Below are positions 15,173 through 48,650 of a DNA stretch of 64,000 bases, one piece after another. The position numbers and the translations under genes were made by a program. This DNA is from Nemertoderma westbladi (lineage: Eukaryota; Animalia; Xenacoelomorpha). Under the pieces are notes generated by a model that ran no database searches, was not told where the DNA came from, and worked only from the letters and a program-made list of their open reading frames with translations. The stretch lies in assembly GCA_032718475.1 (NCBI GenBank), contig JAUCBJ010008125.1, positions 1 to 64,000 on the forward strand. The letters run 5' to 3'. Each line of letters begins with the position of its first letter. Position 1 is the first letter of the stretch.

Positions 15173-15397
15173 TATGTCCCCCCGGAGAATGTGCCCCCGG
15201 GCATTTCTTCCTAGGAAAAAATGCCCCCCTTAGAAAATTATGCCCACCCCCCTGATTACACTATTTTATTGAAGACTGTCTGACTCTGAGATTGTATGCA
15301 CAACTGATCTCAGCCTATAAAGAGACCCCATACTAACACCAACCATTACTTTGGGGACCGTTCTATAAACACTTTTATATATACCGCTTATTATATG

Positions 15398-15718
15398 AGT
15401 AGTATACAATACATGGTTCCTCGCACAAGGTCACCCGTAGTCCATCATTACCATCCATTTCTGGTACTGCAGCCAATCAGAAGCCACCATTTCAACCTTT
15501 TGCAGTGGTCGTTATTATTTCAACCAATCAGATGTCAGCATTTCATCCGTAACCATGGTAACTTCTCATGTTCCCGCTTATTCCGCTAGAGGCGTTATTA
15601 GTCACCCAACGCTAGTACTGCATCCAATCACCAACCTTTATTTTACAGGTGTTCGGGTGTCTACACTTAGCATCAGGTAACTTCTATTATTTTTCAAATC
15701 GCAATTTTTCAGCAACCA
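15398..15718 (+). repeat. Polinton left terminal inverted repeat
   Basis: Reverse complement of ~33326-33646, with only about 4 mismatches seen by eye. Confidence 0.95.
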
Positions 15719-16638
15719 GTATTTTCATATTCACCAACCTTTATTTTACAGACGCTAGGGGTGTCTACAGGTAACTTCTACTAATTTTCATCAGTAACTA
15801 AATTTAATTTTGCAATTTTTCAGATAACAAAATATTCAACCGGGTTCGAACTCGGGACTGCTATAACTCCTCACAACTCACTACTCACTCTTCCATCCAA
15901 CCTCGAGAGAAAAAGGCGATAATTATCCGTGTTATAACAAAATATTCATTCGATGATATGATATGATATTGCACTGTACAGCACGTAGCCTAACCTAACC
16001 ATCTATTCGTATACCTACCATAGCTATGATGGTTACTCTTCCTTTCACTTTTTTCTCTCCCTCTCTCTCTCTTTAGTGTTGTTTGTTATTGATTGATTGT
16101 TGTCAACTCAATGATTTCCTATCCACCCACCCGCTACTTGGCCACGTTGCTGTATCCTTGTGTTTTACTGCAATTCTCCACTCACTCTTCCATCCAACCT
16201 CGAGAGAAAAAGGCGATAAATATCTGAGTTATACCATAGTCATTGAATTCTTCATCTTCATCACTGGTAGCAGATGTTTATAAATAGCTTCTAGTTCCTT
16301 AACATAATTACTATAGCGTAGAATACATTAATTCGACTATTAATAATAATCGATTTCTTTTATCGATGTAACTGGTCGATCAACTAAGTTGAATATAAGT
16401 TAGAATGACAGGGCTAGCATTGATCACGTTGCATCTGTTACACGTTACTGCTATTTCACTCTCTAACTCACGCTAATGTAATAAATTTAGCTGTACACGT
16501 TGCATCTGTTACACGAAGCAACTATATTCCTCACTGTAAGTCACTCTGTTTTATTAAAGCAAGCATATAAACCGAAGTTTTACATTCTAATAATCATTTA
16601 TTTAGTTTTTATTTTTCAAAATAGTTTTCATTCTAATT

Positions 16639-17683
16639 ATGGATTTATTTAAAAAAACTTCAAACAATACTTGGAAATTTACATTTAATAAATATACCTG
16701 TAGTATTGTTTATGGCAAGTACTTTATATTACTCTCAAGCGATAGCAATGTATCAACATGCTTCTCTTACCAGGATACACTCTACCTTCTAGACGTCTTA
16801 GAAATATTAATCAACCGACAAAAGGAATCACCAGTTTCAAGAGGTAATATTTATCCTAATATAGAATTTACAAGAGGAAAGTTAAATATTTCCACCTGTG
16901 TTATTACTGAAAACGTATATATTCAGAAGCAAGGCAAATGTCAAAATTCTAAACAAATCACTCATTAATTTATTGCTTCAGAGTAAGACAGAAATATTAG
17001 AATTGTTATCACCACCACTCGAAATAATAAATCAGTGTTCTGTTGTTAATTTAACCAACCCATCTTTTGTTGGTTTTGTAAGCAAATATAAAGGAGCAAC
17101 TTATATGGGACTATGGGAGATTTCAGCTAGATATTCTGATGCTATTGGTCTTAGGTATTATAATGGGTTTAACTTAACAGCATCGGAAGTAAATTCATTG
17201 TGGTATGAATGGAATTATGAAATTAGTAACGAAGGTGTCTTTTCAGAGCTAGATACGGACGATAAAGCTTTATCTGACCGACTTAAAGTAAAAATAAATG
17301 TACAAGAAAAAAAAGTAATTATTACAGACAAGGAAAGCAAATATTTACAGTTACATTACGATAAAGACATACCATATATAGAGTTTCTCTACGATATGAT
17401 GTTAAATGTTTCATCAACTGATATAGCAGACGGTTTCGCGATTCTATATCCACCAACTTGGAAGTTTAAGGTTAATAAGTCATTTCCAGAAGTAGTTTCA
17501 TCCACATTTAATCCAAAGACATATATCGAAGAGACCTCGAGTGATAGAAAGCGCAGATCTACATCTCAAACATCTTCCATTCCCGACAATGATTCTATAC
17601 CTACAAAGAAAATAAAAGCTACAAAAGCAAGTGAAGAGGTAGCAGATTACAATAAGGAACATATAAAAACAGTATCAGATTGA
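16639..17683 (+). CDS. Polinton protein with a PC4/Sub1-like domain, probably one gene frameshifted near 16915
   Basis: ORFs 16639-16968 and 16898-17683 overlap at a TATATA run. FVSKYKGATYMGLWE...GFNLTASEVNSL resembles the PC4 core VSVRDFKGKVLIDIRE...GISLNPEQWSQL. Confidence 0.6.
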
Positions 17684-18239
17684 TTTATTATTAACTAGAG
17701 ACTTTTCTTTTTCAGTTTCACACTGACTTGTAAAGGTAACTTTTTATCACAAAGCGTGATTATTATAAAGTATTTGCATGTAAAGGTGACTTTATTGAGT
17801 AAATATTGGTGATAGTTTATATTTAATGTGAGCACGGGATTAGGAATAAAACATTCGCATGTAAATGCATGAGTTTACACCACCATAATAAAACATTTGC
17901 ATGTAAAACCTACTTTATCAATGAAAATTAAAAACGTATTATACACATCTTGGTTTAGACTTGATTTTATTATAAAGAATTCAGTTGTAAAAGCAACTTT
18001 ATTTATGATATTAGTTTCCAATGTAACTGTTATTTATGATTGGTTGGTATAAGTAGAAACTTGAAATATATATATATATAAAGAGCTCAACTGATTCATT
18101 CGAGCTCATTCTGAAAATATTAAATTAATTAAAGTTTAGATATTATATTTTATTTGTGTTGAGTAGCTTATGAATTTTTTTGATTATATATATAACAATA
18201 TTCATATTAATTTTAAATTGTTTTTAGGATAATAAAGAG

Positions 18240-19067
18240 ATGGATAAACAATTGAAATGTCCATTTTGTCCTCTTCAAATTTCTAAACGAAATTATTTAA
18301 CACATGTGAAATCTCATTTTGAAGAATACAATTGTTTTAATTGTCGAGTGAAATGTTCACGTGAAGAAATATGTAAACGACATGAAACGACTACAGGATG
18401 TAAAGAAATGAAGTTTTGCGTGTATGAAAAAACTTGCCCTACTTGTAATAAAGAGTATTTATATGAGAATTACTTACGTCACGACTGTCACCAACGTTAT
18501 TATCATGTTAGACCACCACCACAACGGAACCAAAACAATACTATCGTATCTAGAAAAAGACTGAAATCTGGTCAAGGTTCATCAATTTTTAACATTGAAC
18601 GAGCCGCACACGATAACCGTTTAGAAATCTATGTTTACAATCTTCCAAATGATGAAGATTTTCCTGATATTCATTCATCATTAATTAAAATTCTACCTCA
18701 CATCCAAACTTTATTATTAGGAAAACTTAGCGAAATGAATGTACTTAGACCCTGGCTAGGTGTGAATATACTCATGTATCGATCACATTTTTCAGAGGGT
18801 GATCAAGAAGAAGCTTTCTATTTTAGTTCTCCAGGTGGTTCAGTTAATACCGTAGATTCACATGAAAGTTTTGACACATGGTTTGAGTATGTATTAGAAA
18901 AATTAATGCAAAAAATAGCCATGTTTAACACTCGTGGCTCAGGGTGGCGTGTTAAATCTTTATTAAGGGTTGAAATTAAAGTAGCTGAATCCAAGTGTAG
19001 GTCGTTACTATATAAGGGACACGGTTATATGGAGTTACCTAAGGCTCTATCAGTTAAAAACGGCTGA
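18240..19067 (+). CDS. pPolB N-terminal region (zinc fingers plus terminal-protein region), cut off by a frameshift
   Basis: CPFC..H...H and two further CxxC units; KIAMFNTRGSGW and YMELPKAL motifs typical of Polinton pPolB N-termini. Confidence 0.85.
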   Translation: MDKQLKCPFCPLQISKRNYLTHVKSHFEEYNCFNCRVKCSREEICKRHETTTGCKEMKFCVYEKTCPTCNKEYLYENYLRHDCHQRYYHVRPPPQRNQNNTIVSRKRLKSGQGSSIFNIERAAHDNRLEIYVYNLPNDEDFPDIHSSLIKILPHIQTLLLGKLSEMNVLRPWLGVNILMYRSHFSEGDQEEAFYFSSPGGSVNTVDSHESFDTWFEYVLEKLMQKIAMFNTRGSGWRVKSLLRVEIKVAESKCRSLLYKGHGYMELPKALSVKNG

Positions 19068-22000
19068 TAATGATTGTTTTAAATGGGCAATTATAGCTAC
19101 AACATTTAGTAGCAAAGTGAAGAACAACAAATATCGTACTTCGCAGTACAAAAATTATATGGGTCATTTTATTTTTGACAACGGGAACAAAGATTATCCA
19201 ACAGAATGGCAGCTTGCAATTAAACTTTTTGAAAAACAGAATTCAGCATATATAATTAATTTATTACTCTACAACAACAATCGAGTATCTATATTAAGAC
19301 AGGCACCATTTAGTAAAATCACTCCAGATAAAGAGTTATTGAATATATTACTTGTAAAAAATAAGAATACAAGTAAACAATCATATTATGTTTGCATAAC
19401 TAACTTGAATCGTTTGATGAATACGAGAGCTCTTCATACTAATGGTAGGAAATATTGTGAACGGTGTTTGGCGCCTTTCTACACCAATGATGTTCTAGAA
19501 CGTCACCGTCTTGTTTGTTATCGAGGAAAAAGTCAAGTTGAGAAGCTACCATCTGAAAAAAGAACTCACATTAGCTTTAGAAATTTAGACAGAACATTAC
19601 CAGCATTGTTTGTAATATATTTTGACATAGAATCTATTTTGGAGCCAGCCACCAACAGTAAATTTATTCAGAATCATATTCCATGCGCTGTAAGTTATTT
19701 AATTGTTCCTAGTGTCGAATTAATCAATCCACCAAAATTTTATTTGAAGACCTTTACAAAAACAATCGACAACAACTGTATTCAAGACTTTTTAGACTCT
19801 GTATATAATGACATCACCCAATTATATAAGTGGTCGGAAGACCACACAAGAGAGAGAATGATACTTAATGATGCAGATAAGTTAAGTTTTTGGAAAGCTA
19901 AAACTTGCTTTTATTGCAATGTTTTATTTAAGGATAAGTCTGAGAAAAACAAACATCACTCACATATTACTGGTAACTATATAGCGGCCGCTTGTAACGC
20001 ATGTAACCGCTCTTTATCGTTGAAACGACACATGTATATACTCGCTGCACACAACTGCAATCTCTACGATTTGCATTTTCTTTTGCAAGTTGGTTTTAGC
20101 AATAATAAATATTCCGATTGGGATATAAAGGTGATCCCTAAAAATTCTGAAAGGTATATTTCACTAAGCATGCATATACCGGTGAAAAACTCAAAAACAA
20201 AGATTGAGCTACGTGTCTTAGACACATATCAATTTTTATCCTTTTCCCTAAGTACTTTAGTTGATTGTTCAACAAAGGATATAGACAGCGAGGATATAAC
20301 ATCAGTTCTACCAATTACTGAACAGCAAATGAAATATTTTTATCCAAATTTAAATAATGCAACAATTAAACGAAAAGGTATATTTCCCTACGAGTATCTG
20401 ACAGATTTAAATAAATTCAATGATTCGAAATTACCATCAATAGACAAATTTTATAGTAAATTAACACAAAATACCTGTACACCCGAGGAATATAGTTTTG
20501 CCAATGCATCATGGAGTCAGTTTGACTGTGTGAATCTCAAGGATTATCTTTTAGCATACTTAAAACTCGATGTTTGTCTCCTCGCTGATATATTTGAGAA
20601 CTTTAGGAGAGTGTGTAGACAAAACTACGAATTAGAAGTAGTTTATTATTGCAGTATCGCGGCTTTCACTTATGATTGCGCTCTGAAATACAATAAATGT
20701 AAGTTAGCATTAATAAAAGATTACCAAACATATAGAGATTTTGAAGCATCTATTAGAGGAGGGGTTTCATTCTGTCGAAAGCATTATATAGAATCAAATA
20801 TACCAGATACTGATAATTATGATCCAAGCAAGGAAGAGTGTCATATTTTCAATATAGATTTTAATTCCTTGTATTCTGGTAATTTAAGTAAAAAGCTACC
20901 TGTTTCAGGTTTTGAACAAGTCAACGTTACATATTTAGAGAATGCTGCTCCAGAAGAACTGATAAAATATTTATCAAATCTTGATACTGAAGGTGATATT
21001 GGGTTTTTCTTAATTTGCGATTTGAAATATCCCAAAGATATTCACGATCGTACATTAGAACTACCCTTAGCTCCAGAACATTTAAGTATAAATGAGACAA
21101 TGCTTTCACCATATATGAGGGAACAATATAATCATGTTTGTAAACAAAGAGGCACTAATAGCAAGTATAAGATGTGTGCACCAAAACTTATGTTGACACA
21201 ATTCGATAAAGAATTCTATCATGTAAATTTAAAACTGTTAAAATTTTATATAAAACAAGGTTTAATTGTTACTAAGCTCCATAAATTATATTCTTTCCAT
21301 CAAGACTTTGTATTTAAACCCTATATAGATTTTAATATTAATCAAAGGCGGTTAGCAAAAAGTTACATTGAAACTGCTGTCGCGAAATTGCTCAATAATT
21401 CTCTGTTTGGTAAAACAATAGAAAAGATAAGAGATCGATGTAACTTTCGTATCGCTAATAGTAAAGAAAAATGTGACCAATTAGTCAAACGAATAAATCA
21501 TGAAAATTTCATGATTTATAACGATTCCTTATCGGGACATTTATTAGTAAAAGACTCTGTAACTCTCGATAAGCCGGTCTATATAGGTAGTACTGTCTTG
21601 GACTTGGCTAAATTGGATATGTATCAGCTGTATTACGATAAATTGCTACCTATTGAGAAAGAATTAAACTGCCGAATTGAAATTGTAGCATCAGACACGG
21701 ACTCTTTAATAGGTTGTTACTATAATACATCGCAGAATAATTTTTTAAAAGCCTTAATTAAAAATAATATTCTAGATACATCCAATTACCCCAAGGATCA
21801 CCCTCTCTACAGCGATAAAAATAAATCCAGGCTCTATTACTGTAAAGACGAACTAGCCTCACGAGAGATTAAACAAGCGGTATTTTTAAGACCAAAATTA
21901 TATTCAATTTTGGAATTCAATGAATCCAACATACGACGTGCGAAAGGAATAACAAGAGCTGTCGTGGATAAAAATATTTGTCACGAAGATTATTTGAGGG

Positions 22001-22242
22001 CATATTACGATAACGAAGAAATTTCCAAGGAAACACATCAATTTCAGAGTAAATTTCACAAAGTGTATACTATAGCACGAGACAAGTTTGCTCTCAGCGC
22101 ATTTGATGATAAACTTTATTGGGTTAATAAAAATCATTCGCTTCCCTGGGGTCACTATCAAACAAAGGTTGAAAAACCTATGAAAAAAAACAATATACCA
22201 ATTTATCGGGAACCAAACAATGAACTATCAGATAGTCAATAA
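19063..22242 (+). CDS. Protein-primed family B DNA polymerase (pPolB)
   Basis: DNDCFKWAI, ExoI YFDIES, ExoII HNCNLYD, KGIFPYEY, ExoIII YLKLDV, IRGG, motif A DFNSLY, motif B KLLNNSLFGK, motif C SDTDS, RPKLYS, KGI. Confidence 0.97.
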   Translation, partial: ADNDCFKWAIIATTFSSKVKNNKYRTSQYKNYMGHFIFDNGNKDYPTEWQLAIKLFEKQNSAYIINLLLYNNNRVSILRQAPFSKITPDKELLNILLVKNKNTSKQSYYVCITNLNRLMNTRALHTNGRKYCERCLAPFYTNDVLERHRLVCYRGKSQVEKLPSEKRTHISFRNLDRTLPALFVIYFDIESILEPATNSKFIQNHIPCAVSYLIVPSVELINPPKFYLKTFTKTIDNNCIQDFLDSVYNDITQLYKWSEDHTRERMILNDADKLSFWKAKTCFYCNVLFKDKSEKNKHHSHITGNYIAAACNACNRSLSLKRHMYILAAHNCNLYDLHFLLQVGFSNNKYSDWDIKVIPKNSERYISLSMHIPVKNSKTKIELRVLDTYQFLSFSLSTLVDCSTKDIDSEDITSVLPITEQQMKYFYPNLNNATIKRKGIFPYEYLTDLNKFNDSKLPSIDKFYSKLTQNTCTPEEYSFANASWSQFDCVNLKDYLLAYLKLDVCLLADIFENFRRVCRQNYELEVVYYCSIAAFTYDCALKYNKCKLALIKDYQTYRDFEASIRGGVSFCRKHYIESNIPDTDNYDPSKEECHIFNIDFNSLYSGNLSKKLPVSGFEQVNVTYLENAAPEELIKYLSNLDTEGDIGFFLICDLKYPKDIHDRTLELPLAPEHLSINETMLSPYMREQYNHVCKQRGTNSKYKMCAPKLMLTQFDKEFYHVNLKLLKFYIKQGLIVTKLHKLYSFHQDFVFKPYIDFNINQRRLAKSYIETAVAKLLNNSLFGKTIEKIRDRCNFRIANSKEKCDQLVKRINHENFMIYNDSLSGHLLVKDSVTLDKPVYIGSTVLDLAKLDMYQLYYDKLLPIEKELNCRIEIVASDTDSLIGCYYNTSQNNFLKALIKNNILDTSNYPKDHPLYSDKNKSRLYYCKDELASREIKQAVFLRPKLYSILEFNESNIRRAKGITRAVVDKNICHEDYLRAYYDNEEISKETHQFQSKFHKVYTIARDKFALSAFDDKLYWVNKNHSLPWGHYQTKVEKPMKKNNIPIYREPNNELSDSQ

Positions 22243-22765
22243 GAATGTAAGGTGCCAGCAAGTGTCAGCGATTAATTTGAAAGAATTAAAAAATCAATTA
22301 TCTGGTAAACACATACTCAAACCAAATCAGTTTATATATAAGATATTTGGTGCCACATTATTAATATTTAAAAATGGTCGTATTACATTATTAGGCAGTA
22401 AGTATAATTTCCAAAAAGTAAAAAAACATATATTTGATAAAACTAGTATTAATTTGATTTTAAAATCTGTTAATTTATGTACTTATATTTTTAGTATTAA
22501 GTCTGTAGTCTATAGGTTATTGATAAACAATACAGGGTTTTATGTTGTCTTTGATAATGTGCAACTTCAAGTTATATATGAACCTGAAATTTTTAATAAT
22601 TGCAAAATAAGAATAAATAATACCGTAGTCATTTGCTGCTTTCATACCGGTAAATGTACTTTAATGTGTTCACCTAGCAAATTTCACATTTATTACCCTA
22701 TATTTAGTAAACTTGTTAATTATTTATTAATGTTTGGTGTTGTGACTTTAGGTGTTGGTGATTAG
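22220..22765 (+). CDS. TATA-binding-protein (TBP)-like protein, 181 aa
   Basis: Two TBP-type repeats: QIVN...INLKEL...ATLLIFKNGRITLLGSK and SVN...YEPEIF...VICCFHTGKCTL...YPIF. Length equals a bare TBP core. Confidence 0.85.
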   Translation: MNYQIVNKNVRCQQVSAINLKELKNQLSGKHILKPNQFIYKIFGATLLIFKNGRITLLGSKYNFQKVKKHIFDKTSINLILKSVNLCTYIFSIKSVVYRLLINNTGFYVVFDNVQLQVIYEPEIFNNCKIRINNTVVICCFHTGKCTLMCSPSKFHIYYPIFSKLVNYLLMFGVVTLGVGD

Positions 22766-22849
22766 AAGGTGAAAATTAAACATTATTATTTTTCAATCAA
22801 TCAATCAATCGATAGTTAGGGAAAACTAACCTCGTTTGAATAAGCATGA

Positions 22850-23820
22850 CTCTCACGGGTTGACTGCGTGCCTAGCTGCGTGGCTGGCTGCGTGCCGCGA
22901 GGCTGACTACATGACCGACCGCGAGGCTGACTGCGTGCCGCAAGGCTGACTGCATGCCGCGAGGCTGACTGCGAGGCTGACTGCGTGCCGCGAGGCTGAC
23001 TGTGAGGGTGGCTAGATGGCTGCAAGGTGGACCGTTTCCCAGCAGTGTGGCTGACTGCGCGCACATCCGATTGTAACTGGCTCACGATAAAGTATACATT
23101 GACTCAGTTTGTTACTGCGGGTACTGTTACATTAATACTGTGGTACCGGTACCGTACTGCAGTACAATGCTAATTAAAGGAAATCAGCATGCTCTATCTG
23201 ACTATACTGTTACATCAAGAACAGCGACAGTACTGCAGTACTGTATTGTTTGGGTAGGTGATCTAATCCCTATATGTGAGAGCTACGCGTCCCTTCTAGG
23301 TTATGACAGCAGTATGCTAATCAAGGTTCGGGTAGACAGCAGTATCCTTATAGTTGAAAAAAAACAAATGTTATTACATCAGATTACCGCTGTACTGATA
23401 AAATGGATGACAGTTGTGGATAGGAGTTGCGAGGTTGACCACATCCCTCGCAGTGTGGCTGACTGCGTACAAATCTGATTGTAACTGACTCACGATATTG
23501 TATACATTAGCCTAGTTTGTTACTGAGGGTACTGTTACATTAATACTGTAGTACTGGTACCGTACTGCGGTACAATGCTAATCAAAGGAAATCAGTATGC
23601 TCTATCTGATTATGCTGTTACATCAACAACAACAGTACTGCAGTACTGTATTGTTTGGATAGGCGATCTAATCCCTATATGAGAGACTCCTGCGTGTAAT
23701 CCAGATCATGACAGCAGTATGCTATTGCTTCAGATTACTGCTGTACTGATACCAGTAGACTGTGACTACAGTGTTGGAAGAGTAAAACACTACCGGTACT
23801 GATAAAGCGGATGACAGTTG
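22850..23820. repeat. Polinton internal non-coding repeat region
   Basis: GC-rich GGCTGACTGCGTGCCGCGA units at 22860-23060, then a ~407-bp-period direct duplication (CAGTGTGGCTGACTGCG at ~23043 and ~23450). Confidence 0.85.
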
Positions 23821-24190
23821 TGGTTAGGCTTATAATAAATTATTGAATTTATCAGTACCGGTACCAACAGGTTAACACTACATCCTATACAGTTTATGTT
23901 GCATTTCTGACTAATATTACTAGTCAACTACTGTATGTGTTATTAGTTTGCGATGTATAGGATGTTTCGCAATACCAGTATATCTATATTAGAACGATAT
24001 CGAGAATACTTACTGTACATGTTACGTCTACGTCATATTGTTAAATGTGCATGGTTAACCTACCGCGATTGACTCTTTTAGAGAACTTGTTGTAAAAAAA
24101 ATTATATTTTATTATATTTTTATATTAACATCAAGATCATCACCAAAATAAAATTATATTATCCCATCACATTACATGCTTAGAGTAAAC

Positions 24191-24790
24191 CTACAGTACA
24201 TCTTCCACCGCAGTTATTTCTTTCTGTTTATCATCATCATCAGTCGCAGTTAAACGCTTTCTCATGAAAAAGTGTAGAGCCTCAAACCAGCCAACACGTT
24301 TTGCTGAGCAGTATCGCAGACAGTTATCCCTTATGTTTAAGTGGAACGCGCATTTACTTTCCATTGTAGTGAATCGGTCGTGAAATCGACAAGGTGTTAA
24401 ATAATCGTGATATTGCTTATATATTCCCAATTTCTCCACCGAATTTGGCTCGAGAACATCGAGTTGGGAAACTAATATTGCCCGCTTCATCAACCCAAAT
24501 ACATGAATATTTTTTTTATATTTTAAATGTCTCTTCATATATTTTTTAAAGTCATCTTGAGAAATGTCCCCATAGTCCCAGGGCAAGTGAGAAGTCATAT
24601 CTCGTAAATTGTTTACGTGAGCTGCATCTAAAGCTGATAACTTAATATTAGACGGGCCTTTAATTAAAAACGTCTTTACATTAGTTTTGGTGTAATTAGA
24701 ATCGTATATTGCAAATTCTTTAAATACTACCGGATACTCTTTATTGTCTATCTTATAATATTGAAAATCAACAAAAATAATATTATCCAT
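24191..24790 (-). CDS. Polinton accessory protein, possible DEDD/DnaQ-fold exonuclease-like
   Basis: IIFVDFQYY...FKEFAI, LPWDYGDI, IHVFG..K and a C-terminal C..H/C..H..C cluster. Confidence 0.55.
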   Translation of the reverse strand: MDNIIFVDFQYYKIDNKEYPVVFKEFAIYDSNYTKTNVKTFLIKGPSNIKLSALDAAHVNNLRDMTSHLPWDYGDISQDDFKKYMKRHLKYKKNIHVFGLMKRAILVSQLDVLEPNSVEKLGIYKQYHDYLTPCRFHDRFTTMESKCAFHLNIRDNCLRYCSAKRVGWFEALHFFMRKRLTATDDDDKQKEITAVEDVL

Positions 24791-24821
24791 TTTATCTGAT
24801 AAACAAAAGTTAAATAATTAA

Positions 24822-25274
24822 TTACAAAGTTTGTTGGTTTAATTTATAATAATTAACAAGCCATTTATATAATATAATTTCATTGATTTCCACATTATTT
24901 GTAAACGCTCTCATTGGATAGATTGTGTAAATACGATTTACCAAATAATAAAGACAGTATAGACCGCATGTGGTCCTCCTGGGGTCTTGAAATTGTTTGC
25001 GTGTAGTACGCCACCTTGCGGAATTTTTCTCAAGCCATTTTTCAATGCATCTGTTTGGATATTTTGGTCCAAACGAGTCAAATACTTCGGCCTCATTATC
25101 TCGTATATATATCGCGATCCAATGAATCCCAGGCAGATGCTGTTTATCGGTATTTACTATCAAACCATAATCCTGCCGCTTATTATTATCTAATTTAGGT
25201 AATTTATTAGCTGGAAACGCGCCCAAATAGTGACCACCCACTGGAAACATATCAAGGTCCTCTGTAGATAACAT
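24822..25274 (-). CDS. Adenain-like cysteine maturation protease (PRO)
   Basis: IVNTD...GIHW, FDSFG, Q.....TCGLYC catalytic His/Asp/Cys. Confidence 0.95.
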   Translation of the reverse strand: MLSTEDLDMFPVGGHYLGAFPANKLPKLDNNKRQDYGLIVNTDKQHLPGIHWIAIYIRDNEAEVFDSFGPKYPNRCIEKWLEKNSARWRTTRKQFQDPRRTTCGLYCLYYLVNRIYTIYPMRAFTNNVEINEIILYKWLVNYYKLNQQTL

Positions 25275-25276
25275 AC

Positions 25277-26536
25277 TTAATCGATATGTATTTCTTTCCT
25301 GCTATTTAAACTTAATGATTGATCATAAATATTAAAAACGATTACATTTATGGTTTCAACCAACGGTTCGGCAAATCTTAATTTTAATTGACCGTTAGTA
25401 TATATCGACGGTTGCGGATCTCTAACGTTGCCGTCGGCGGTTAGGTCCCAGGATAGGATGGGACAATTACCTAAGTAGGTTTCATGGTCTATATTATTAC
25501 CCCCATAACCGTTAATATATGTATTAATGTTCTTCATTAATTGAGTATACTCAAAAATATATGTTCCATCTGTAAAATTAGGTTCGTATATTACACCCCC
25601 TACTGGAAGACCGTCTACAATCAGTTCCGCGCGTCTAAGGTTAAAATGTTCAAATTTCAAGGGATTGCTAATTAATTCTCCCGAATAAGCGTTATTTGTT
25701 ATGAAGCCAATAATAACTAATTTGGGTTTTTTACCATCAAATATGTTTGTTTGAGTGTAATTTGTGGTTTGAGCGGGAATAGTAAATGTTGTCACCTCCT
25801 TTTTTTGAAATTGATATTCAATATCGTAGCTCTCTAAACCTTTTAGGTGACTGCTTTCTATTACTGGATTAACCTCCATTCTAGGGATTAGAATTTTTAT
25901 TTCATCTAATTCTAGTCGAAGATTTGTCACGGCGTTTGCGTTTGGAGTGATTTTAAAAATAAACGAATTTGATACTTTTCTAAAATGCATTCTTAAATCA
26001 TACCCAGGTTGTATTATTTTAGTTTCAGTATCAAAATCAATCGTCAATCCACTTACAAATTGCATTTGTTTACTAAAGGCATCGGCAATAGGATGCGCGC
26101 CGGGATCAATTTCATTTCCGTGTTCAGATAAAGGTTGATGAAAGCCACCCGCACCCAGTAGCCCATTTTTATCCTCGTAAGTTGTAAATAATAAATTGGA
26201 TAAGTACGACTTGTAGAAATAATGGTTATTGCTATTTTCAACCTGCTTCTCATTAAGGTCTATTTTAATATCACTCCACATAGTTTCAGCTGGGTAATTC
26301 AGCATATAAATATGGGAGTTTTCAAGTCGTCTATCCCAACGTACTGTACATTTTGTAATTAATAACGCGTCTTGCAGTTTCGTATAGAATTCATTGGATC
26401 TGGGTACAAGGAAGGTGACCTCCCTAGATTCACTTCTGAGATTAGATACGGGGTAAATTGTTTCATAATGCTTTGCTTTAAATTCAGTCTGTATTGGCTG
26501 TGTAGAAAATAAATCTAATTCCTTAATAATTGACAT
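25277..26536 (-). CDS. Double jelly-roll major capsid protein
   Basis: ELDLF...IQT, PKLVIIGF...AYSG...NPLKFEHFNL, LKLRFAEPL; size and position typical of the Polinton MCP. Confidence 0.9.
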   Translation of the reverse strand: MSIIKELDLFSTQPIQTEFKAKHYETIYPVSNLRSESREVTFLVPRSNEFYTKLQDALLITKCTVRWDRRLENSHIYMLNYPAETMWSDIKIDLNEKQVENSNNHYFYKSYLSNLLFTTYEDKNGLLGAGGFHQPLSEHGNEIDPGAHPIADAFSKQMQFVSGLTIDFDTETKIIQPGYDLRMHFRKVSNSFIFKITPNANAVTNLRLELDEIKILIPRMEVNPVIESSHLKGLESYDIEYQFQKKEVTTFTIPAQTTNYTQTNIFDGKKPKLVIIGFITNNAYSGELISNPLKFEHFNLRRAELIVDGLPVGGVIYEPNFTDGTYIFEYTQLMKNINTYINGYGGNNIDHETYLGNCPILSWDLTADGNVRDPQPSIYTNGQLKLRFAEPLVETINVIVFNIYDQSLSLNSRKEIHID

Positions 26537-26538
26537 TA

Positions 26539-27099
26539 TTAAAAAATACTTTTTTCGCAGTGTTTCAGTTTGCCTTTTATATTTCTCTTTTTACTACGTC
26601 GATGATGTATGTTCATAGACATTGGTCTAGCGGGTCGCTTTAAATCTCTATAAACTTTTTCTACAACCGACCTTGTTGACGGTTTCATTTTATTTAATGC
26701 TTTATTAATAACCGTATTAGCCTGCTGATGTAAGACCCGCTTACCTTTTGGTATTACGTGTTGTCTCATAAATTTTGTGGTAAATGGTAAAGCTTTCTGT
26801 AAAACTTTTTTAGCTAATGGCTTACCAAATTTTTTCAATGTCGATAAGGCGTCTGTAAATATACCTTCTCCGTGTTGATTTGCCCGCATACCTCTAGGAT
26901 AACGCTGAAAACGACGTTGTTTTAAGTTTGGACCAAATGTGCCAATTTGTTGACCGTAAGGGTCAATATATGAACCACCACGAAAAACAGGAACTTGCGT
27001 CGAGCCTCTGGTACTTCTTCCGCCTTTAAAAACAGCAAGATTAGAGTCTGAACCCCCATATTGAGGTTTACTGTATCTTTGAAATAAATCAGAATCCAT
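26539..27099 (-). CDS. Basic virion core / membrane-lytic-type protein
   Basis: K/R-rich; QYGG, FKGG, FRGG and QHGEG glycine motifs followed by an amphipathic helix. Confidence 0.65.
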   Translation of the reverse strand: MDSDLFQRYSKPQYGGSDSNLAVFKGGRSTRGSTQVPVFRGGSYIDPYGQQIGTFGPNLKQRRFQRYPRGMRANQHGEGIFTDALSTLKKFGKPLAKKVLQKALPFTTKFMRQHVIPKGKRVLHQQANTVINKALNKMKPSTRSVVEKVYRDLKRPARPMSMNIHHRRSKKRNIKGKLKHCEKSIF

Positions 27100-27100
27100 T

Positions 27101-27955
27101 TTAATTTATACGTTTAAAGTGTAATGTAATAGAAGTTGTGCCGTATTCAAAATTCAAATCTTTTCCTTCTTTGTCTGTTATTTCAATATGAATGTATGTT
27201 ATCTTATATGATTTTTTTACAGGGATATAATGAATTGTATCCTTGACAAATTCTTTATTTATTACGCTACTATATTTCACATCATCAGGTATCGCAACAC
27301 GACGAAGTAAAGCTAAACCAAAATCGTTAATATATTGATTTTCAATTATATTAGTAGCCACGTACATGTTCGAATTAGGTTCTGGAATAGAGTTGGGTGG
27401 TTGAGGGCATAAAAATACCATCTGGTAAGCCTTTTCTCCATTTCCGATAACCTTTATTAAATAACCCTTTATATTATTTTTCGTCTTCAAAATAATTTTA
27501 AAATTTGGATTTAAATTCGCGCCGAGATTATTTTCAGTAATTCCAAAATAATAGGCTAATTGTTGGCCTATAAATAACTCTCGCACAGTTTTCCCTAAAA
27601 TAAATTGCAATCTATTTTGCTGAGTATTTTCAACTATTTGTAATTTATCTTTCAACGCTCCTGTGTTAAAATAATCTATAATGTCATTGATACTGTAGAA
27701 TAAACCAGATGGAAGTGTATCCTCAAAAATTTTTTTCCCTTTTTTTAATAAAATAACATTCTCTACATTGTTATACATGGACGGCAACGTTGCTAAGTAA
27801 AATATACTTTTTATACCTACCACCCAGTTTTCGTTTGGATTTATAGGTAAGGCGCCGTGGAAATTTATCTGATAATTACTAGCGCTATTGCGGGGAAAAT
27901 CAATTGGACAGGAATTACTTGGTAGTCTAACGTAGAACTCATCCATCACCGCCAC
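27101..27955 (-). CDS. Minor capsid (penton) protein, copy 2
   Basis: FYVRLPSNS...FPRNSASNY, WVVGI, MYVATNII...LLRRV, YIPV, ITLHFK. Confidence 0.85.
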   Translation of the reverse strand: MAVMDEFYVRLPSNSCPIDFPRNSASNYQINFHGALPINPNENWVVGIKSIFYLATLPSMYNNVENVILLKKGKKIFEDTLPSGLFYSINDIIDYFNTGALKDKLQIVENTQQNRLQFILGKTVRELFIGQQLAYYFGITENNLGANLNPNFKIILKTKNNIKGYLIKVIGNGEKAYQMVFLCPQPPNSIPEPNSNMYVATNIIENQYINDFGLALLRRVAIPDDVKYSSVINKEFVKDTIHYIPVKKSYKITYIHIEITDKEGKDLNFEYGTTSITLHFKRIN

Positions 27956-28811
27956 CCCGTATTAACTTAAGTGTTATAACAGTGCGACCTCCGCTGAAGT
28001 TAATTAATTGGCCTTGGCCATCACGTAAAGTAATTAAGATTGTTTTTAGTTTTTTATTCAACAATGGGAAATAGCAAATGCTCTCGTATTCGTGATTAAT
28101 ATATTTTCGATTTAATTGCGTTAAAGGGCAGGTTCTTAAGAGCGGAGCTAAAGCGTCGCCAACAAATGAGCTCTTAATAATATCTGTGTATATAAAGATA
28201 GTGTCTTTATTACGTGTTATATTTGTGGGAGCTGGAAAATCTAAAATGCCAATTTCCGAAATTTTTGGCCCGCTATAATTTAAAATTAATATCGGCTGTT
28301 CTATATTGCTTAATTCATCTACTGTAGTGGTACTGTATATATCCCAATTCGGAATATCCGGATGATTCCGATCCAATAACGGTTTTAAGCCTAGAATTTG
28401 TATTAATTCGCCGCGTAGACTTAATTGTATTTTTTTCAACTTTTTAGGAAATTTAAATTTAATTCTAGAATTATTTGTATTAAAAATGAATTCGAAATCT
28501 CTATATTTCGCTTCAGAATTAAACAGTTTATTTATATCATCAATAATCACTTGAATAGAGTTATGCATACCAGGAAATAAACTATATAATTTGGCATCTT
28601 TTGCATCTACCCCGATTGACAGCGAAATTTGAGTTTGCAGCGTAATATTACTGTATGTTGCTTGGTATTGAAGTTCGGCAAGTCCAATTTTGGCATTTGG
28701 ACCAATATATAATTCTTCGGCTAAATCAACAGTAAACTCACTAGGATTATTATTGGGATAAGTGTTCAATGAGCTATCTGAAAGTAGAGTGATATATGTA
28801 TCTGTGGCCAT
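27939..28811 (-). CDS. Minor capsid (penton) protein, copy 1
   Basis: YITLLSDSS...YPNNNPSEF, IGLAEL, IFIYTDII...VGD..APLLR, YFPL, ITLKL. Confidence 0.85.
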   Translation of the reverse strand: MATDTYITLLSDSSLNTYPNNNPSEFTVDLAEELYIGPNAKIGLAELQYQATYSNITLQTQISLSIGVDAKDAKLYSLFPGMHNSIQVIIDDINKLFNSEAKYRDFEFIFNTNNSRIKFKFPKKLKKIQLSLRGELIQILGLKPLLDRNHPDIPNWDIYSTTTVDELSNIEQPILILNYSGPKISEIGILDFPAPTNITRNKDTIFIYTDIIKSSFVGDALAPLLRTCPLTQLNRKYINHEYESICYFPLLNKKLKTILITLRDGQGQLINFSGGRTVITLKLIRGGGDG

Positions 28812-29060
28812 TATTATTATTATTTAAGCTCGCTCTCTCTACTTGACTCCTTTGTACATACAGTATAATGTTAAATTATAGACATCTGTGACCACGTTCA
28901 TTGCCAGCATCTTCTACAGTATATGCGTGGGATCAATATTTTACTGGCTTTATTTAAAGCGGATGAACTATAGATATAGTAATATCATTCGAGTTAATAT
29001 TATTGATTAATTACGGTCATATGCGAGCAAAATGAATTAATATACAGTATAAACCTAAGC

Positions 29061-29190
29061 TTATTGAATATGCTGTACCCAGGACTGTTTCTTGGATCCG
29101 ATGAATCGGACTAAATATTCTTTCTTCCCATTGCGTACACGTTCTTTAAGTTTGCCAATATTTTTTTTGTCAATTGCTAGATTAAATATT
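29061..29190 (-). pseudogene. Out-of-frame chromodomain-like integrase tail
   Basis: A shifted frame reads IFNLAIDKKNIGKLKERVRNGKKEYLVRFIGSKKQSWVQHIQ*. Confidence 0.65.
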
Positions 29191-30141
29191 ACTATTCGGG
29201 TGGACCTTTTGGAGTTCGTGAGAATAAAATGAGCCCTTTATTATAGCTCCGGTGCTGTCCTTAATATCGAACATTACCGCTGGTACTCTATCCAACCTGA
29301 CCCGATGAATAATAAATAATTCACGTGTCCATTGTTCTCGATAGCCTTTAGCAAAAGCAGTACGAGCAATAGATAATCGTACTGTATCTCCAACTTTAAA
29401 TTTTATTTTCTTGTGATTTATCTGTCTATATTTCCCATATAATCTATTCATTAATTCAGTTTCATTAAATTTATTAACTTCAATAGGTGTCATTTGTATT
29501 GTTCTATGATACGACCTATTATAAGCCGAGATAAGCTTAGGTAAAATTTTTATCCAAATATTATTTCCCCTTTGCGTGAAAATTTTGAACATCTTTGTTT
29601 TTAAGGTTCTGTTAAATCTCTCGACAATAGCCGCCTTATTCACAGAATACATTACGTAATACTGTATACCTAACGTATCTAAATATTTCCTTACAGATTT
29701 ATTTAGAAACTCAGTACCTTGATCTGTGGCGATTCTGTTTGGTTTTCCTTTCTGGAATATTTTTTGCAATATACTAATAATTTCAACACCCTTTTTTGTT
29801 TTCATAGCATAGCCAAAAGCAAGTCGACTGAAGGCTTCAATGCACGTTAATATATAGTTATAATTATTATTTTGCGACTTATATTGCTGCATATCCACCA
29901 GATCTATCATATATATATCTTTTATACCTCCCGTAAATATTTTAGATGTTGGATAATGTTGTCTACGTGGAGCGTGAAGGGTGTACGTCTTTTGTCCGCT
30001 CAACCATTTCTGGGCTTGCGCCGGTTTGATGTTTGCAGCTTTTGCTAATTTTGCAACACTCGCAAATCCCGCGGGGGATGAAGGATCTAAATAAATTCTT
30101 AACAGTTTTTTGTCTAAGCTTCGGCTTAAAATCGGTTTCAT
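29182..30141 (-). CDS. Retroviral-like (rve) DDE integrase
   Basis: YLDP..PAGF, YTLH, IDLVDM, TDQGTEF, VERFNRTLK, YNRSYHRTI, F.KGY...WT.ELF, GSFY..ELQ. Confidence 0.96.
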   Translation of the reverse strand: MKPILSRSLDKKLLRIYLDPSSPAGFASVAKLAKAANIKPAQAQKWLSGQKTYTLHAPRRQHYPTSKIFTGGIKDIYMIDLVDMQQYKSQNNNYNYILTCIEAFSRLAFGYAMKTKKGVEIISILQKIFQKGKPNRIATDQGTEFLNKSVRKYLDTLGIQYYVMYSVNKAAIVERFNRTLKTKMFKIFTQRGNNIWIKILPKLISAYNRSYHRTIQMTPIEVNKFNETELMNRLYGKYRQINHKKIKFKVGDTVRLSIARTAFAKGYREQWTRELFIIHRVRLDRVPAVMFDIKDSTGAIIKGSFYSHELQKVHPNSNI

Positions 30142-30375
30142 CTTGCGAGGTATCTTTTCGACAACCGCAAGTAATATGTATATTCAAATCTCTTATAAAG
30201 GGCATCACCGTAAGAACAACTGAAATTTTTTAATTATTTTCTTCGAAGTTGATGTTTTAAAGGGTTTTCTTTTTGTAGTATTTACTCTAGGTATATCTTG
30301 TGGTTTTAAATCAGCAGCTAACGGTTTACTCGATACTAAATATAATTTTCTAAATGTTACTCCCGTTTTAACCAT
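30138..30375 (-). CDS. Small Polinton ORF, probably frameshifted
   Basis: ATG at 30375 gives MVKTGVTFRKLYLV...; a second frame ends YYLRLSKRYLAR* with the TGA overlapping the integrase ATG. Confidence 0.4.
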
Positions 30376-30381
30376 TATTAC

Positions 30382-30765
30382 CTACCGTCCACGGTTAATT
30401 TTTTTCGCAATAGCAGCCCCCGCGGCCGCGGCACCGGCACTCGCGGCGAGTTTCGCACCAATGCCGAGTAAGGGTATTAGAAACGGTAGTATGCCTCCAG
30501 ATTGATTGCTTAACTTTTTTCTGTAACTTGATATATTTTTTGTTTTACGGTTGAGTGATTTCAATACCTTCTTATAGCGGCGAATATTTCTAAATGAATG
30601 AGGAGTCAATTGTACATTACCTTTTAGAACATTTAATGCAGTATTTATAATGAGCCGTATTAATTCGTTACTGGCGGTATGGTTAATAAAATAAGTTCTT
30701 TGTTGAGGGGTAGCGCTGCATAGAAATTCCAGTTCGTTACGATATTTCTGCACAAGTCTATTCAT
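30382..30765 (-). CDS. Basic Polinton core protein with probable protease cleavage site
   Basis: ALNVLKGNV.L and QSGGILPFLIPLL followed by a hydrophobic Ala-rich tail. Confidence 0.75.
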   Translation of the reverse strand: MNRLVQKYRNELEFLCSATPQQRTYFINHTASNELIRLIINTALNVLKGNVQLTPHSFRNIRRYKKVLKSLNRKTKNISSYRKKLSNQSGGILPFLIPLLGIGAKLAASAGAAAAGAAIAKKINRGR

Positions 30766-30802
30766 TGTTGCAACATTATTGAAAATTGTTACAAAATATT
30801 AA

Positions 30803-31483
30803 TTATTTATCATTATTATTATTATTATTTTCACTACGTTTATAGTCAGTGTAATTTTTAATGTAACAATTATGATTACGAAATATATCAGATCTAAATC
30901 TTAAATGTTCGGGTGTTTCCTGTCGTAAATCAATTAAGAAATGTGAAAATGGTTCAATTGTCGCATCTTGATAGGAAGCAACTAAAAATTTGGTCTGCCC
31001 TGGTAACATCTGCTTCGCGAAATTTAAAACCGATAGACTGTCTCTCGGATTTTTCATTAATACTAAAGTATGGCTATTAATTGATCTTGTGCGGTTATGC
31101 TTCCCACCGTAAAACATGTTTTGCGTTATAAAACAAATAAATATATTGGAATGATGAGCTACCTTAGTAAACAATACAGTTAAAGCTGTACTGGACTCAG
31201 TTTCTGTTAACAAATCATCTATAATTAATAAATCTCGACTATTCACTAAACTATCTATATTTTCAGGCAAGCCTTTGTAAAGGTGAGTAATACCAGGAAT
31301 AGTCGGGGGATTGCTCCCGTAACAATACAATACTCGCAAGGGGGCTTCGTTGAAACAACCATTCTTGTGTTTAATTAAATTGCTTACAAAGGTTGACTTT
31401 CCGGAGCCAGATGGCCCTGAAATTATCATACTTGTACCCATTTGAAAGTTTAAATTATATGGACCTGAATTAAAGTCAGCCAT
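30803..31483 (-). CDS. FtsK/A32-like genome packaging ATPase
   Basis: Walker A GPSGSGKS, Walker B LLIIDD, LFTK..HH, ITQN, KNPRD, IDL....PEHLRFR. Confidence 0.96.
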   Translation of the reverse strand: MADFNSGPYNLNFQMGTSMIISGPSGSGKSTFVSNLIKHKNGCFNEAPLRVLYCYGSNPPTIPGITHLYKGLPENIDSLVNSRDLLIIDDLLTETESSTALTVLFTKVAHHSNIFICFITQNMFYGGKHNRTRSINSHTLVLMKNPRDSLSVLNFAKQMLPGQTKFLVASYQDATIEPFSHFLIDLRQETPEHLRFRSDIFRNHNCYIKNYTDYKRSENNNNNNDK

Positions 31484-31693
31484 TTATTATTATTATTAAG
31501 ATATATCAACAATACAATATAATATAATATCAATATCAATAAACCAACACCATTACTATGTATATAACAATAATTGATGCAACTACAATATTAGAGTACT
31601 GTATATTTAATTAACATATGATACCACTACACTATGTCACGCTCGCTGCAGCAAAAGGTGCTATTTCCAATTATAGTATAGACTGATGTAATT

Positions 31694-32146
31694 TCAAGCA
31701 TGGTGAGCATCTTTATACGCGAAATAATGATAGGTAACATCGGCGGATTGGAAATCACTTCCCGAAAATTTCGCGCTAATGATTTTTTTATGTTCGCTTC
31801 TAAAAAAATAAGGAATATAGTAGCAACAGCGTCGTACTACGTTTCTATAAAAAATATTCTCCAATATTGTAAATAAATCTCCCGGATCATTACTTTTCGC
31901 AGAAATATAAGTTATATTGCGAAGCTCTTTCCAATAATAGGGTTGGTATCTTGCCAACTTTATATTAAACTTAGATATGGGTGCGCGACAAATAGGACAA
32001 ATTTTAGAACAATAATTATTCATTTCGGAATATTGTGCAATACATTGTACGCAAGTTGCATGTTTATTTTCACATTTATAATAATCTCGATGTTGTTGCA
32101 ATAACTTAGAATAGCAAACTGGACATTTTTCATTTAAAATATCCAT
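31694..32146 (-). CDS. RING-finger protein (putative E3 ubiquitin ligase)
   Basis: CPVC...CENKHATCVQC...CPICR, a C3HC4-type pattern. Confidence 0.8.
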   Translation of the reverse strand: MDILNEKCPVCYSKLLQQHRDYYKCENKHATCVQCIAQYSEMNNYCSKICPICRAPISKFNIKLARYQPYYWKELRNITYISAKSNDPGDLFTILENIFYRNVVRRCCYYIPYFFRSEHKKIISAKFSGSDFQSADVTYHYFAYKDAHHA

Positions 32147-32314
32147 TTTCCAAATTTTAAAGTAAATTGAAAATAATTACCACAATACACAACAACAACA
32201 ACAACAAACAAAACTGTTATACTGTATATACAAATACTACTACAATTTTCGATTATTTAAAAACAACAAAATTTTATATATAATCATAAAATATTTATAA
32301 TATAGAGGGAAAAG

Positions 32315-32761
32315 TCAAGAATCAATGATATTATCAACATATTCAACATTATCCGCTGATTCTTCAGGTTCGACAAAGGATTCTTTTGAAATCATTACAA
32401 TAAAGAAAGACATAATTTCGTAGGGGCTATGCCGATTTAGCCGTATTTCAAACTTTTCACCAGCTTCGTTGTATTGTGTAATAACAATAAATCCCTCTAT
32501 CATGGATAATAGTAAAATGTTGCTTAATTTTCCTCCCCCATGCTCAGCTTTCAGGTTGTAATCTAAAAGATGAATACTATTATCAGAAGCATCAATATCA
32601 ATTGAGCTTAAAACTTTCCTGGCTTTTTCAGAAAATTCAATTTTATATTTATCATCTCCCTGACGGTAAATTGTATAATCAATAACAATATAGGCTTGAC
32701 CATCTTCTGCAAAAAATGAATGCCTTACCATTGGCATAACCATATTGGAATCAGAAGACAT
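32315..32761 (-). CDS. Polinton hypothetical acidic protein
   Basis: 148-aa ATG-initiated ORF with a TATA-like run upstream at ~32860. Confidence 0.65.
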   Translation of the reverse strand: MSSDSNMVMPMVRHSFFAEDGQAYIVIDYTIYRQGDDKYKIEFSEKARKVLSSIDIDASDNSIHLLDYNLKAEHGGGKLSNILLLSMIEGFIVITQYNEAGEKFEIRLNRHSPYEIMSFFIVMISKESFVEPEESADNVEYVDNIIDS

Positions 32762-33325
32762 TATTTAATTTATTTTATTGTAAATCAAACAAACAAAGTA
32801 AAAACTTTTAAACTAAAACCATTACAAATGATTAATTGCGATTAAAGCAAGAGATTATATATATAAGATATTTTCAAAAATAATACAGGTCTTAAACTGA
32901 GAAATAGCCTAAATTCGGTTTATTGATTGGTTGATTAGCTGGTGGGTAACTACTGTATAAACAAAAAAATTATTGCGTAATAATCACTAATGCTCGTATA
33001 CGCGTAGCTAGAACGTGACGGAATCTCATGTATCATACTAGTTGGTTTGTTGATTTGGCGACAGCAGTCGTGGAGTTGGCAATCAATATAATATAATATA
33101 TGCATGATGCGTGTAGTTGGTGGCCACGTTGTCAGCATATACAGTATACAGTGGTTGGTTGCGTGGTAGTGGCGGTAACGTGGTGAAAAGGTGAATAACC
33201 GTAGGGTTAGGCAAACATCGCTGTTGGTTGAGTGGTTGGGTGGGTAACAGCTGTGGATTGAGTAGCGATGGGATGGGGGCTAGCCATGCATCGTGAGGTT
33301 AGGCTATGTGAAGATGAATATGCAA

Positions 33326-33646
33326 TGGTTGGTGAAAAATTGCGATTTGAAAAATAATAGAAGTTACCTGATGCTAAGTGTAGACACCCGAACACCTGTA
33401 AAATAAAGGTTGGTGATTGGATGCAGTACTAGCGTTGGGTGACTAATAACGCCTCTAGCGGAATAAGCGGGAACTTGAGAAGTTACCATGGTTATGGATG
33501 AAATGCTGACATCTGATTGGTTGAAATAATAACGACCGCTGCAAAAGGTTGAAATGGTGGCTTCTGATTGGCTGCAGTACCAGAAATGGATGGTAATGAT
33601 GGACTACGGGTGACCTTGTGCGAGGAACCATGTATTGTATACTACT
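33326..33646 (-). repeat. Polinton right terminal inverted repeat
   Basis: Mirror of 15398-15718; ends GTATACTACT followed by the TSD TATATG. Confidence 0.95.
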
Positions 33647-48418: not shown

Positions 48419-48650
48419 AGATCCAGGACAGCTATAGTTTATATGACATTAACTATGGTTGAAAAATATGAATGTTTGAATAAAGGAGTAACAGTAGTTT
48501 TTAGTTACAATGACTAATGCCGGTATTTCATTGTAGTTAGGATAATTCCGAATAAATTATGGATTAAGATTTACCCCATATTATCACACAATGAAAGTTA
48601 TGAAATTTATTTGTATTTATTATAATGTTCATACTATTTTTTTTATACAG

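Follow-up and report, generated by a model that had tools for sequence, protein, structure and literature searches.

A Polinton of Nemertoderma westbladi encodes a divergent TATA-binding protein that may serve virion gene cassettes whose heads lack a TATA box

A Polinton with a TBP-like gene

The DNA analysed here (the window) is a stretch of 64,000 nucleotides from Nemertoderma westbladi (contig JAUCBJ010008125.1, positions 1 to 64,000) that contains a Polinton of 18,249 bp (15398–33646), with AGTAGT termini, terminal inverted repeats (TIRs) of 326 nt at 98% identity, and a TATATG target duplication on both sides (15392–15397 and 33647–33652). All Polinton hallmarks are present: a protein-primed polymerase (PolB), an rve integrase, an ATPase, a protease, and one major and two minor capsid-type genes. 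The initial annotation described an 18-kb element that has no RNA polymerase and carries a gene for a protein resembling the TATA-binding protein (TBP), and both statements hold. No RNA polymerase family was found among the 16 element open reading frames (ORFs) scanned against Pfam, and the ORF at 22220–22765 matches Pfam TBP (PF00352) in two stretches, at 38.2 bits against a cut-off of 22.9. The ORFs scanned against Pfam likewise contained none of the families that form a multi-protein viral pre-initiation complex, and no TFIIB-like ORF occurred among 337 six-frame ORFs. The start of the TBP-like gene overlaps the polymerase stop codon, and no TATA box precedes it. The virion genes are arranged in two minus-strand cassettes, in which the genes behind the head are mostly coupled by overlapping or adjacent stop and start codons.

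When folded as a single sequence, the TBP-like protein gave a predicted local distance difference test score (pLDDT) of 37.7; when modelled on a 55-row TBP alignment the score rose to 81.6, and the top Foldseek matches in the PDB were all TBPs. In an alignment with 50 other TBPs, the intercalating residues F50, F125 and F141 are kept, as is the acidic TFIIB stirrup (YEPE, residues 120–123); F38 is an ambiguous candidate for the fourth intercalating Phe and adjoins a 5-residue deletion. Seven conserved floor columns (V/T/N/P/L/V/T) are changed to T56, L58, T88, N126, C139, T147 and M149, and the protein does not match the canonical TATA-reading floor residues. The first, N-terminal stirrup is shortened by deletion; we take this stirrup to be the side facing TFIIA, and its shortening argues against the element TBP/PC4 system first proposed. 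Apart from columns with published roles, the assignment of alignment columns to DNA, TFIIA or TFIIB contact is presumed. The roles of the Phe, Pro, Asn, V213, T215 and E188 positions are as given in PMC12529657.

The gene is kept behind the polymerase in a sister subfamily (contigs of run X1). Comparison with the X1 contigs, which are of depth below 5, covers 10 codons with listed changes, 5 of them synonymous; in the second repeat 5 of the 7 listed changes are synonymous, and F125, N127 and C128 are kept. The X1 contigs leave 22.7–24.1 kb uncovered, a gap to which we attach no weight. The TBP-like gene is a real, constrained and divergent viral TBP, and the retention of its altered floor in the sister subfamily suits a changed DNA preference. 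A direct homologue search yielded none among 39 candidates, and a search of 1.84 billion representatives returned one match (P0002, E 7.5e-4). The window branch is saturated in TBP trees (length 10): one tree groups it with the TBP of related locus L038 and the compact TBPs P0002/3/5/6 (support 84–90) and another places it elsewhere, so that the trees do not agree on an origin for the gene. Scans of viral contigs with alignments of the major capsid protein (MCP), PolB and three TBP sets gave no confirmed locus, and PHROGs and PDB sequence searches were uninformative.

Promoter features of the element

The presence of TATA-like boxes at the outer genes, proposed from the initial reading, was borne out: all four outer units have one, at −73, −55, −136 and −104 from the ATG, and three of these share the 12-mer TTATATATAWAA, which has no other exact copy in the 64 kb and in each case lies upstream of an outer gene. 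A (TAA)n leader had been described as shared by the virion genes, and this stands for two of them. The element contains three tracts of (TAA)4 or longer where 0.06 are expected, and each lies on the virion strand. Two of them run directly up to a start codon, that of the ATPase and that of the first minor capsid gene, which are the two cassette heads (P ~2e-4, post hoc), and in both heads CTTAA lies at −17. The third tract is coding, and the leader is absent at 8 of the 10 virion-cassette genes. When k-mers were screened for a late box in common, only (TAA)n words emerged.

In PMC5294985, the TBP site is placed 25–30 nt upstream of the transcription start. Were TBP to bind at −17 to −1, transcription would begin within the coding region, and the minor capsid protein would then lose its conserved N-terminus, which begins at residue 5 (the next Met is residue 83). 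The (TAA)n tracts thus lie too near the ATG for TBP geometry, and are more likely to represent an initiator and 5′ leader than a TBP site.

Related loci

An ATPase motif scan recovered at least 103 metagenome loci, with flanks for 80, and two motif scans of viral contigs added 22, for a total of 125. TBP was found in three of the loci listed (L038, L039 and L077) and PC4 in three (L021, L036 and L047); none was seen to carry both in the stretches retrieved and searched, which come from contigs that are mostly partial. The initial annotation expected TBP-like and PC4-like genes to occur together across related Polintons, and the count of 0 in 125 runs counter to that expectation in this sample, in which 18 of L021–L125 reach 8 kb and the TBP loci are incomplete, giving low power for co-occurrence. 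No TBP was present in L001–L022, which, except for L021, belong to other Polinton or Polinton-like virus groups.

Turning to the promoters of these relatives, 36 ATPase starts were called, of which 28 were left after dropping L022 (another group) and seven with less than 70 nt upstream. TATAWA occurs at −35 to −60 of the ATPase in 14 of the 26 listed loci without a seen TBP (7.7% in shuffles), lying 37–54 nt before the ATG, and in neither of the two with TBP; these two, L039 and L077, lack a TATA box at −35 to −60 of both the ATPase and MCP heads. With the window and L038 added by hand, none of 4 elements with TBP has the box, compared with 14 of the 26 without a seen TBP (Fisher p = 0.10). 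In 6 of the 14 TATA-bearing heads, TCAKY follows 30–33 nt behind the box, which places the starts 10–21 nt before the ATG; the CTTAA(TAA)n of the window occupies the position of this initiator, not that of the TATA box. No (TAA)3 lies within 40 nt of the ATG at any of 28 ATPase, 14 minor capsid or 10 MCP starts in the listed loci. On the sequences compared, the (TAA)n leader is private to the window family and does not travel with TBP.

Three TBP arrangements were seen in the related loci and the window. In L039:10909–12104 (−) and L077:9452–10656 (−), TBP has a TFIIB-like gene as its neighbour, and the pair is oriented divergently to the MCP gene; the TFIIB-like gene of L077 matches Pfam TFIIB at E 4e-9. 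A candidate TTAAAG box can be made out by eye in L039 and L077, on which we base no claim. A lone TBP at L038:1759–2280 (−) immediately precedes the ATPase on its upstream side, close to a PLA2-like gene, and constitutes the third arrangement. The PC4 genes of L021, L036 and L047 are tandem two-repeat genes with a conserved Cys/His motif at the end, situated near the element end, with no TBP seen. An acidic low-complexity protein at L077:12544–13470 (−) has a compact C-terminal domain that appears PC4/Whirly-like (beta-beta-beta-alpha) by eye; it has no Pfam match.

The g1 and RING genes and other features

The initial annotation also described a PC4/Sub1-like motif (17066–17200), which lies in the g1b frame. 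By eye, a PC4-like pattern within 17042–17200 can be aligned over its full length with a genuine PC4 repeat from a Polinton; the comparison gave a shuffle p of 0.106 and local alignment p of 0.14–0.84. The g1b frame has no match to Pfam PC4 (PF02229) at E ≤ 10 and none to a three-sequence Polinton PC4 profile; HH probabilities against PC4 profiles were 0.1–0.2%, and the small Polinton profiles have limited reach, which leaves a PC4 fold conceivable. No g1b homologue was found among 541 candidates. Every statistical test of PC4 identity was negative, and the assignment is unsupported. The top clusters for g1 by Atlas features were tyrosine-recombinase-derived (DUF3435, NDC10_II and DUF3504), with scores of 0.82–0.87, all below 0.9, and serve as leads only.

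The RING ORF has C3HC4 spacing and a Pfam zf-RING_2 match at E 0.002, under the cut-off, and is a probable E3 ligase. Its proposed part in transcription control did not fare as well as the RING pattern itself: nothing ties the protein to transcription, and RING-like ORFs occur in three related loci among the matches listed, none with a TBP match. A three-gene TBP/PC4/RING system is unsupported, and extending the TBP finding to PC4 and RING adds little to it. We infer that g1 and RING are separate accessory genes, for DNA binding or replication help and for ubiquitin ligation, respectively, and not parts of a switch.

The present copy has two genes that are each divided over a pair of overlapping frames (overlaps 16886–16968 and 18985–19067). 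Both PolB parts sit in a single ORF in relatives, and the second overlap is a break in the present copy. A contig of the X1 run differs in length within the first overlap, which fits a single gene broken here, with g1a probably its 5′ part.

Several further features were observed in and around the element (Table 1). The 1.4-kb non-coding stretch at 22766–24190 contains short repeats rich in GC as well as a 180-nt unit present in duplicate; its TACTGCAGTA words also occur in the host flank at 13.3–13.7 kb, and it may be a host repeat that inserted here. Three 37-nt repeats (TTATTATAAAG...GTAAA...CTTTATT) at 17760–18003, upstream of the polymerase promoter, are possible enhancer or binding sites. 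A 66-nt subterminal unit and the word CACGTTGCATCTGTTACACG are each duplicated upstream of the first gene (15874–16236 and 16425–16515). The start of the 199-aa gene resembles, by eye, that of the 'FVDLQGF...KE(F/V)A' gene located after MCP in the insect-type Polintons L015, L018 and L019 (BLAST gave no match). Outside the element, a 6-kb skewed tandem repeat at 42–48 kb precedes an uninterrupted host frame of 3,506 codons (48626–59146) that encodes C-type lectin, VWD/C8/TIL, EGF and ZP domains, is tectorin/mucin-like and suggests an animal host.

Table 1. Genes, repeats and promoter features of the N. westbladi Polinton (window coordinates)
Feature	Position	Strand	Remarks
Polinton/Maverick element	15398–33646	.	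TIRs, 6-bp TATATG duplication
Left TIR	15398–15718	+	98% repeat
TATAAA	16566–16571	+	73 nt before first ORF
g1a, 109-aa ORF	16639–16968	+	Overlaps g1b in other frame; family unassigned
g1b, 265-codon open frame	16886–17683	+	Contains by-eye PC4-like stretch 17042–17200
TTATATATATAA box	18184–18195	+	55 nt before polymerase unit; longer TA run at 18067–18081
Zinc-finger/N-terminal part of protein-primed PolB	18240–19067	+	Overlaps main frame
PolB main frame	18985–22242	+
TBP-like gene, 181 aa	22220–22765	+	Pfam TBP; overlaps polymerase stop
199-aa gene	24191–24790	−	Last in capsid cassette
Adenain-type maturation protease	24822–25274	−	Peptidase_C5, 26.7 bits
MCP	25277–26536	−	23% to L021 MCP, E 3e-30
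Basic core-type protein, 186 aa	26539–27099	−	Position as in relatives; putative name
Canonical TATAAAAG	26574–26581	−	45 nt before MCP ATG, inside core-protein gene
Minor capsid-type protein 1	27101–27946	−
Minor capsid-type protein 2	27939–28811	−	Head of capsid cassette
CTTAA + (TAA)n leader	28812–28828	−	Abuts minor capsid 2 ATG; TACAAAGG at −45
rve integrase	29182–30141	−	Pfam
56-aa basic ORF	30205–30375	−	Coupled via TAATG/TGATG overlaps
127-aa conserved Polinton gene	30382–30765	−	Follows ATPase
Packaging ATPase	30803–31483	−	Head of second cassette
Third (TAA)5 tract	30813–30827	−	Coding (Asn run) at ATPase 3′ end, ~50–60 nt before 127-aa gene
CTTAA + (TAA)n leader	31484–31500	−	Ends TAAATG, before ATPase; no TATA at −35 to −60
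RING-HC (C3HC4) protein, 150 aa	31694–32146	−
TTATATATAAAA box	32272–32283	−	136 nt before RING
148-aa gene	32315–32761	−	Family unassigned
TTATATATATAA box	32855–32866	−	104 nt before 148-aa gene
Right TIR	33326–33646	−

A possible role for TBP at the cassette heads

We tentatively favour, as a reading that falls a little short of probable, that the lone altered TBP serves the two TATA-less cassette heads (ATPase and minor capsid) with host TFIIB and RNA polymerase II (Pol II). The element TBP would bind variant A/T boxes approximately 45 nt upstream of each head and recruit host TFIIB and Pol II there, while the outer genes would use host TBP at canonical TATA boxes. Given the overlap of its gene with the polymerase stop and the lack of a box there, the element TBP may be made from the polymerase transcript, which would delay the virion genes. 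The (TAA)n tracts would provide the initiator and a short unstructured 5′ leader of the two head mRNAs. Of the early/late switch first attributed to an element TBP/PC4 pair, what survives is a TBP for TATA-less virion genes, with weak comparative support (p = 0.10); the PC4 half failed all tests.

Several observations weigh against this proposal. The MCP has a canonical TATA box (TATAAAAG at −45; 2.2% of background windows score as high), as does the 199-aa gene (TATAAATT at −58; 0.3%); with TATAAG at −56 of the integrase, the division into two promoter classes is not clean. The two heads share no box at −35 to −60: the −45 region of the ATPase holds only AT-rich TATT/TATATT variants and that of the minor capsid gene TACAAAGG, no better than 29–44% of background windows. 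The comparative contrast (0/4 versus 14/26) is not significant and its elements are not independent, and 12 of the 26 listed heads without a seen TBP also lack a TATA box. Leaders of (TAA)n, expected at the outset to accompany TBP across relatives, occur in none of the other three loci with TBP. Within the TBP itself, all three listed codon changes in the first repeat of X1 are non-synonymous, and the fold search is partly circular, the model having been built on a cellular-TBP alignment.

Much of this would be accommodated by a functional TBP that drives no late switch, an account we consider possible if doubtful. Here TBP would raise the activity of every promoter in the element, or would titrate TFIIB or the host's TBP regulators as a decoy; the heads would be served by host TFIID via an initiator, and (TAA)n would be only an A-rich translation leader arising from slippage. 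The absence of a shared upstream box, the canonical boxes before MCP and the 199-aa gene, and the TATA-less heads in loci without a seen TBP all favour it, as do the coding nature of the third tract and the A/T-rich TAATG/AAATG contexts that are also found ahead of the outer genes. It is less readily reconciled with tracts, and a CTTAA at an identical offset, at precisely the two genes that head the cassettes, or with the retention of the altered floor residues in the sister subfamily.

A further suggestion concerns g1 and is compatible with the other readings: g1 might, on rather uncertain grounds, encode a very divergent tandem PC4-fold single-stranded DNA-binding protein that has no connection with TBP and assists the protein-primed polymerase in strand-displacement replication. 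It is co-oriented with the polymerase unit and directly upstream of it, tandem PC4 genes occur in TBP-less Polintons, and a phage T5 PC4 homologue is used in DNA replication according to PMC7549692. Against this stand the lack of a statistical PC4 signal and the Atlas clusters, which weakly favour tyrosine-recombinase-derived domains.

A virophage-style arrangement, in which the RNA polymerase of a helper large DNA virus reads the virion heads, (TAA)n/TAAATG acts as a poxvirus-like late initiator and the element TBP adapts that polymerase, appears improbable. The leader of the ATPase has TAAATG at its end and that of the minor capsid gene contains TAAAT, in poxviruses the start site is overlapped by the late motif TAAAT(G/A) (PMC5294985), and the TBP model finds matches among viral TBP-fold proteins from large DNA viruses; however, TAAAT is common at 67% A+T, relatives show TATA-initiator spacing of the Pol II type, the TFIIB-type stirrup is kept and no helper is known. 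Least probable of all is the model first proposed, a module of TBP and a PC4-like coactivator (and RING) reading (TAA)n promoters: beyond the by-eye alignment, it can draw on the PC4 genes of related Polintons, the unclassified protein of TBP-bearing L077 and the incompleteness of TBP-bearing contigs, but it is opposed by the negative PC4 tests, the lack of both genes together in the listed loci, the complete L021 with PC4, no TBP and normal TATA boxes before its ATPase and minor capsid genes, the position of (TAA)n, too near the ATG for a TATA site at −25 to −30 from the start (PMC5294985), and the 4.5 kb that separate g1 from TBP.

Returning to TBP action at the two heads, the finding bears on how Polintons without an RNA polymerase time their capsid genes. 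In coral data, structural genes cluster apart in expression (PMC11131425). An ordinary TATA-initiator promoter before the ATPase is common in the related Polintons (14 of 26 listed) and TBP-bearing lineages are the exception, a pattern that we did not find in the open literature. A 181-aa TBP of altered specificity would be a directly testable handle and an orthogonal TBP–promoter pair. More speculatively, the element may embody a one-protein late switch, in which a viral TBP, reduced to its core and with a DNA preference of its own, relies on TFIIB and Pol II from the host to turn on two virion cassettes marked by a family-private CTTAA(TAA)n initiator-leader. This would be the smallest strategy of the herpesvirus vTBP kind, and of independent origin in Polintons; g1 might then be a helper whose PC4 fold can no longer be recognised.

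Comparison with known systems

Within the open literature (supplements and subscription papers lay outside its scope), we found no published TBP late switch in Polintons. The Fig. 5 legend of Starrett 2021 (PMC8502044) labels a TBP in a Polinton-like virus, with no mechanism; the accessible parts of PMC11161782, PMC11131425, PMC11296320 and PMC11662393 contain no TBP/PC4 promoter mechanism, and the accessible main text of PMC11296320 draws no link between TAAAT and promoters.

The leaders resemble the poxvirus late TAAAT(G) initiator in placing an A/T motif over the presumed start, directly before the ATG; poxviruses, however, use their own RNA polymerase, and here the (TAA)n run is present at two genes only. 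The g1b stretch recalls PC4/Sub1 (PF02229; phage T5 PC4; the Polinton PC4 of L021, L036 and L047) in its strand and helix order by eye and in a few matching residues, but lacks the P-T/G-K-K-G motif found in all four Polinton repeats and gives no significant score. As a Polinton or adintovirus, the element is typical in its core genes, TIRs and 6-bp duplication, whereas its TBP is rare (3 of 125 loci listed) and, unlike in L039 and L077, is not accompanied by a TFIIB-like ORF.

The protein shares with the cellular TBP family (PF00352) the two-repeat saddle, four Phe positions (F38 ambiguous) and the YEPE stirrup, and differs in its low structural identity (16–19%), very long branch, shortened N-terminal stirrup and many changed base-contacting residues. 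The closest parallel is the vTBP late system of beta- and gammaherpesviruses (ORF24 of KSHV, the herpesvirus associated with Kaposi's sarcoma; BcRF1 of Epstein–Barr virus; UL87 of human cytomegalovirus), which acts at TATT boxes. The Polinton TBP, as predicted here, is a bare 181-aa core without the Pol II-binding extension or the six-protein complex, keeps the acidic TFIIB stirrup that ORF24 lacks, and has no shared TATT box at its heads (−35 to −60). The likenesses (PMC4893493 and PMC12529657) are a TBP-fold protein with the kept Phe and a more polar floor in a virus that has no RNA polymerase of its own, and a division between early genes with TATA boxes and structural genes without them; in KSHV ORF24, too, the V213 position is occupied by T and the floor is polar (PMC12529657).

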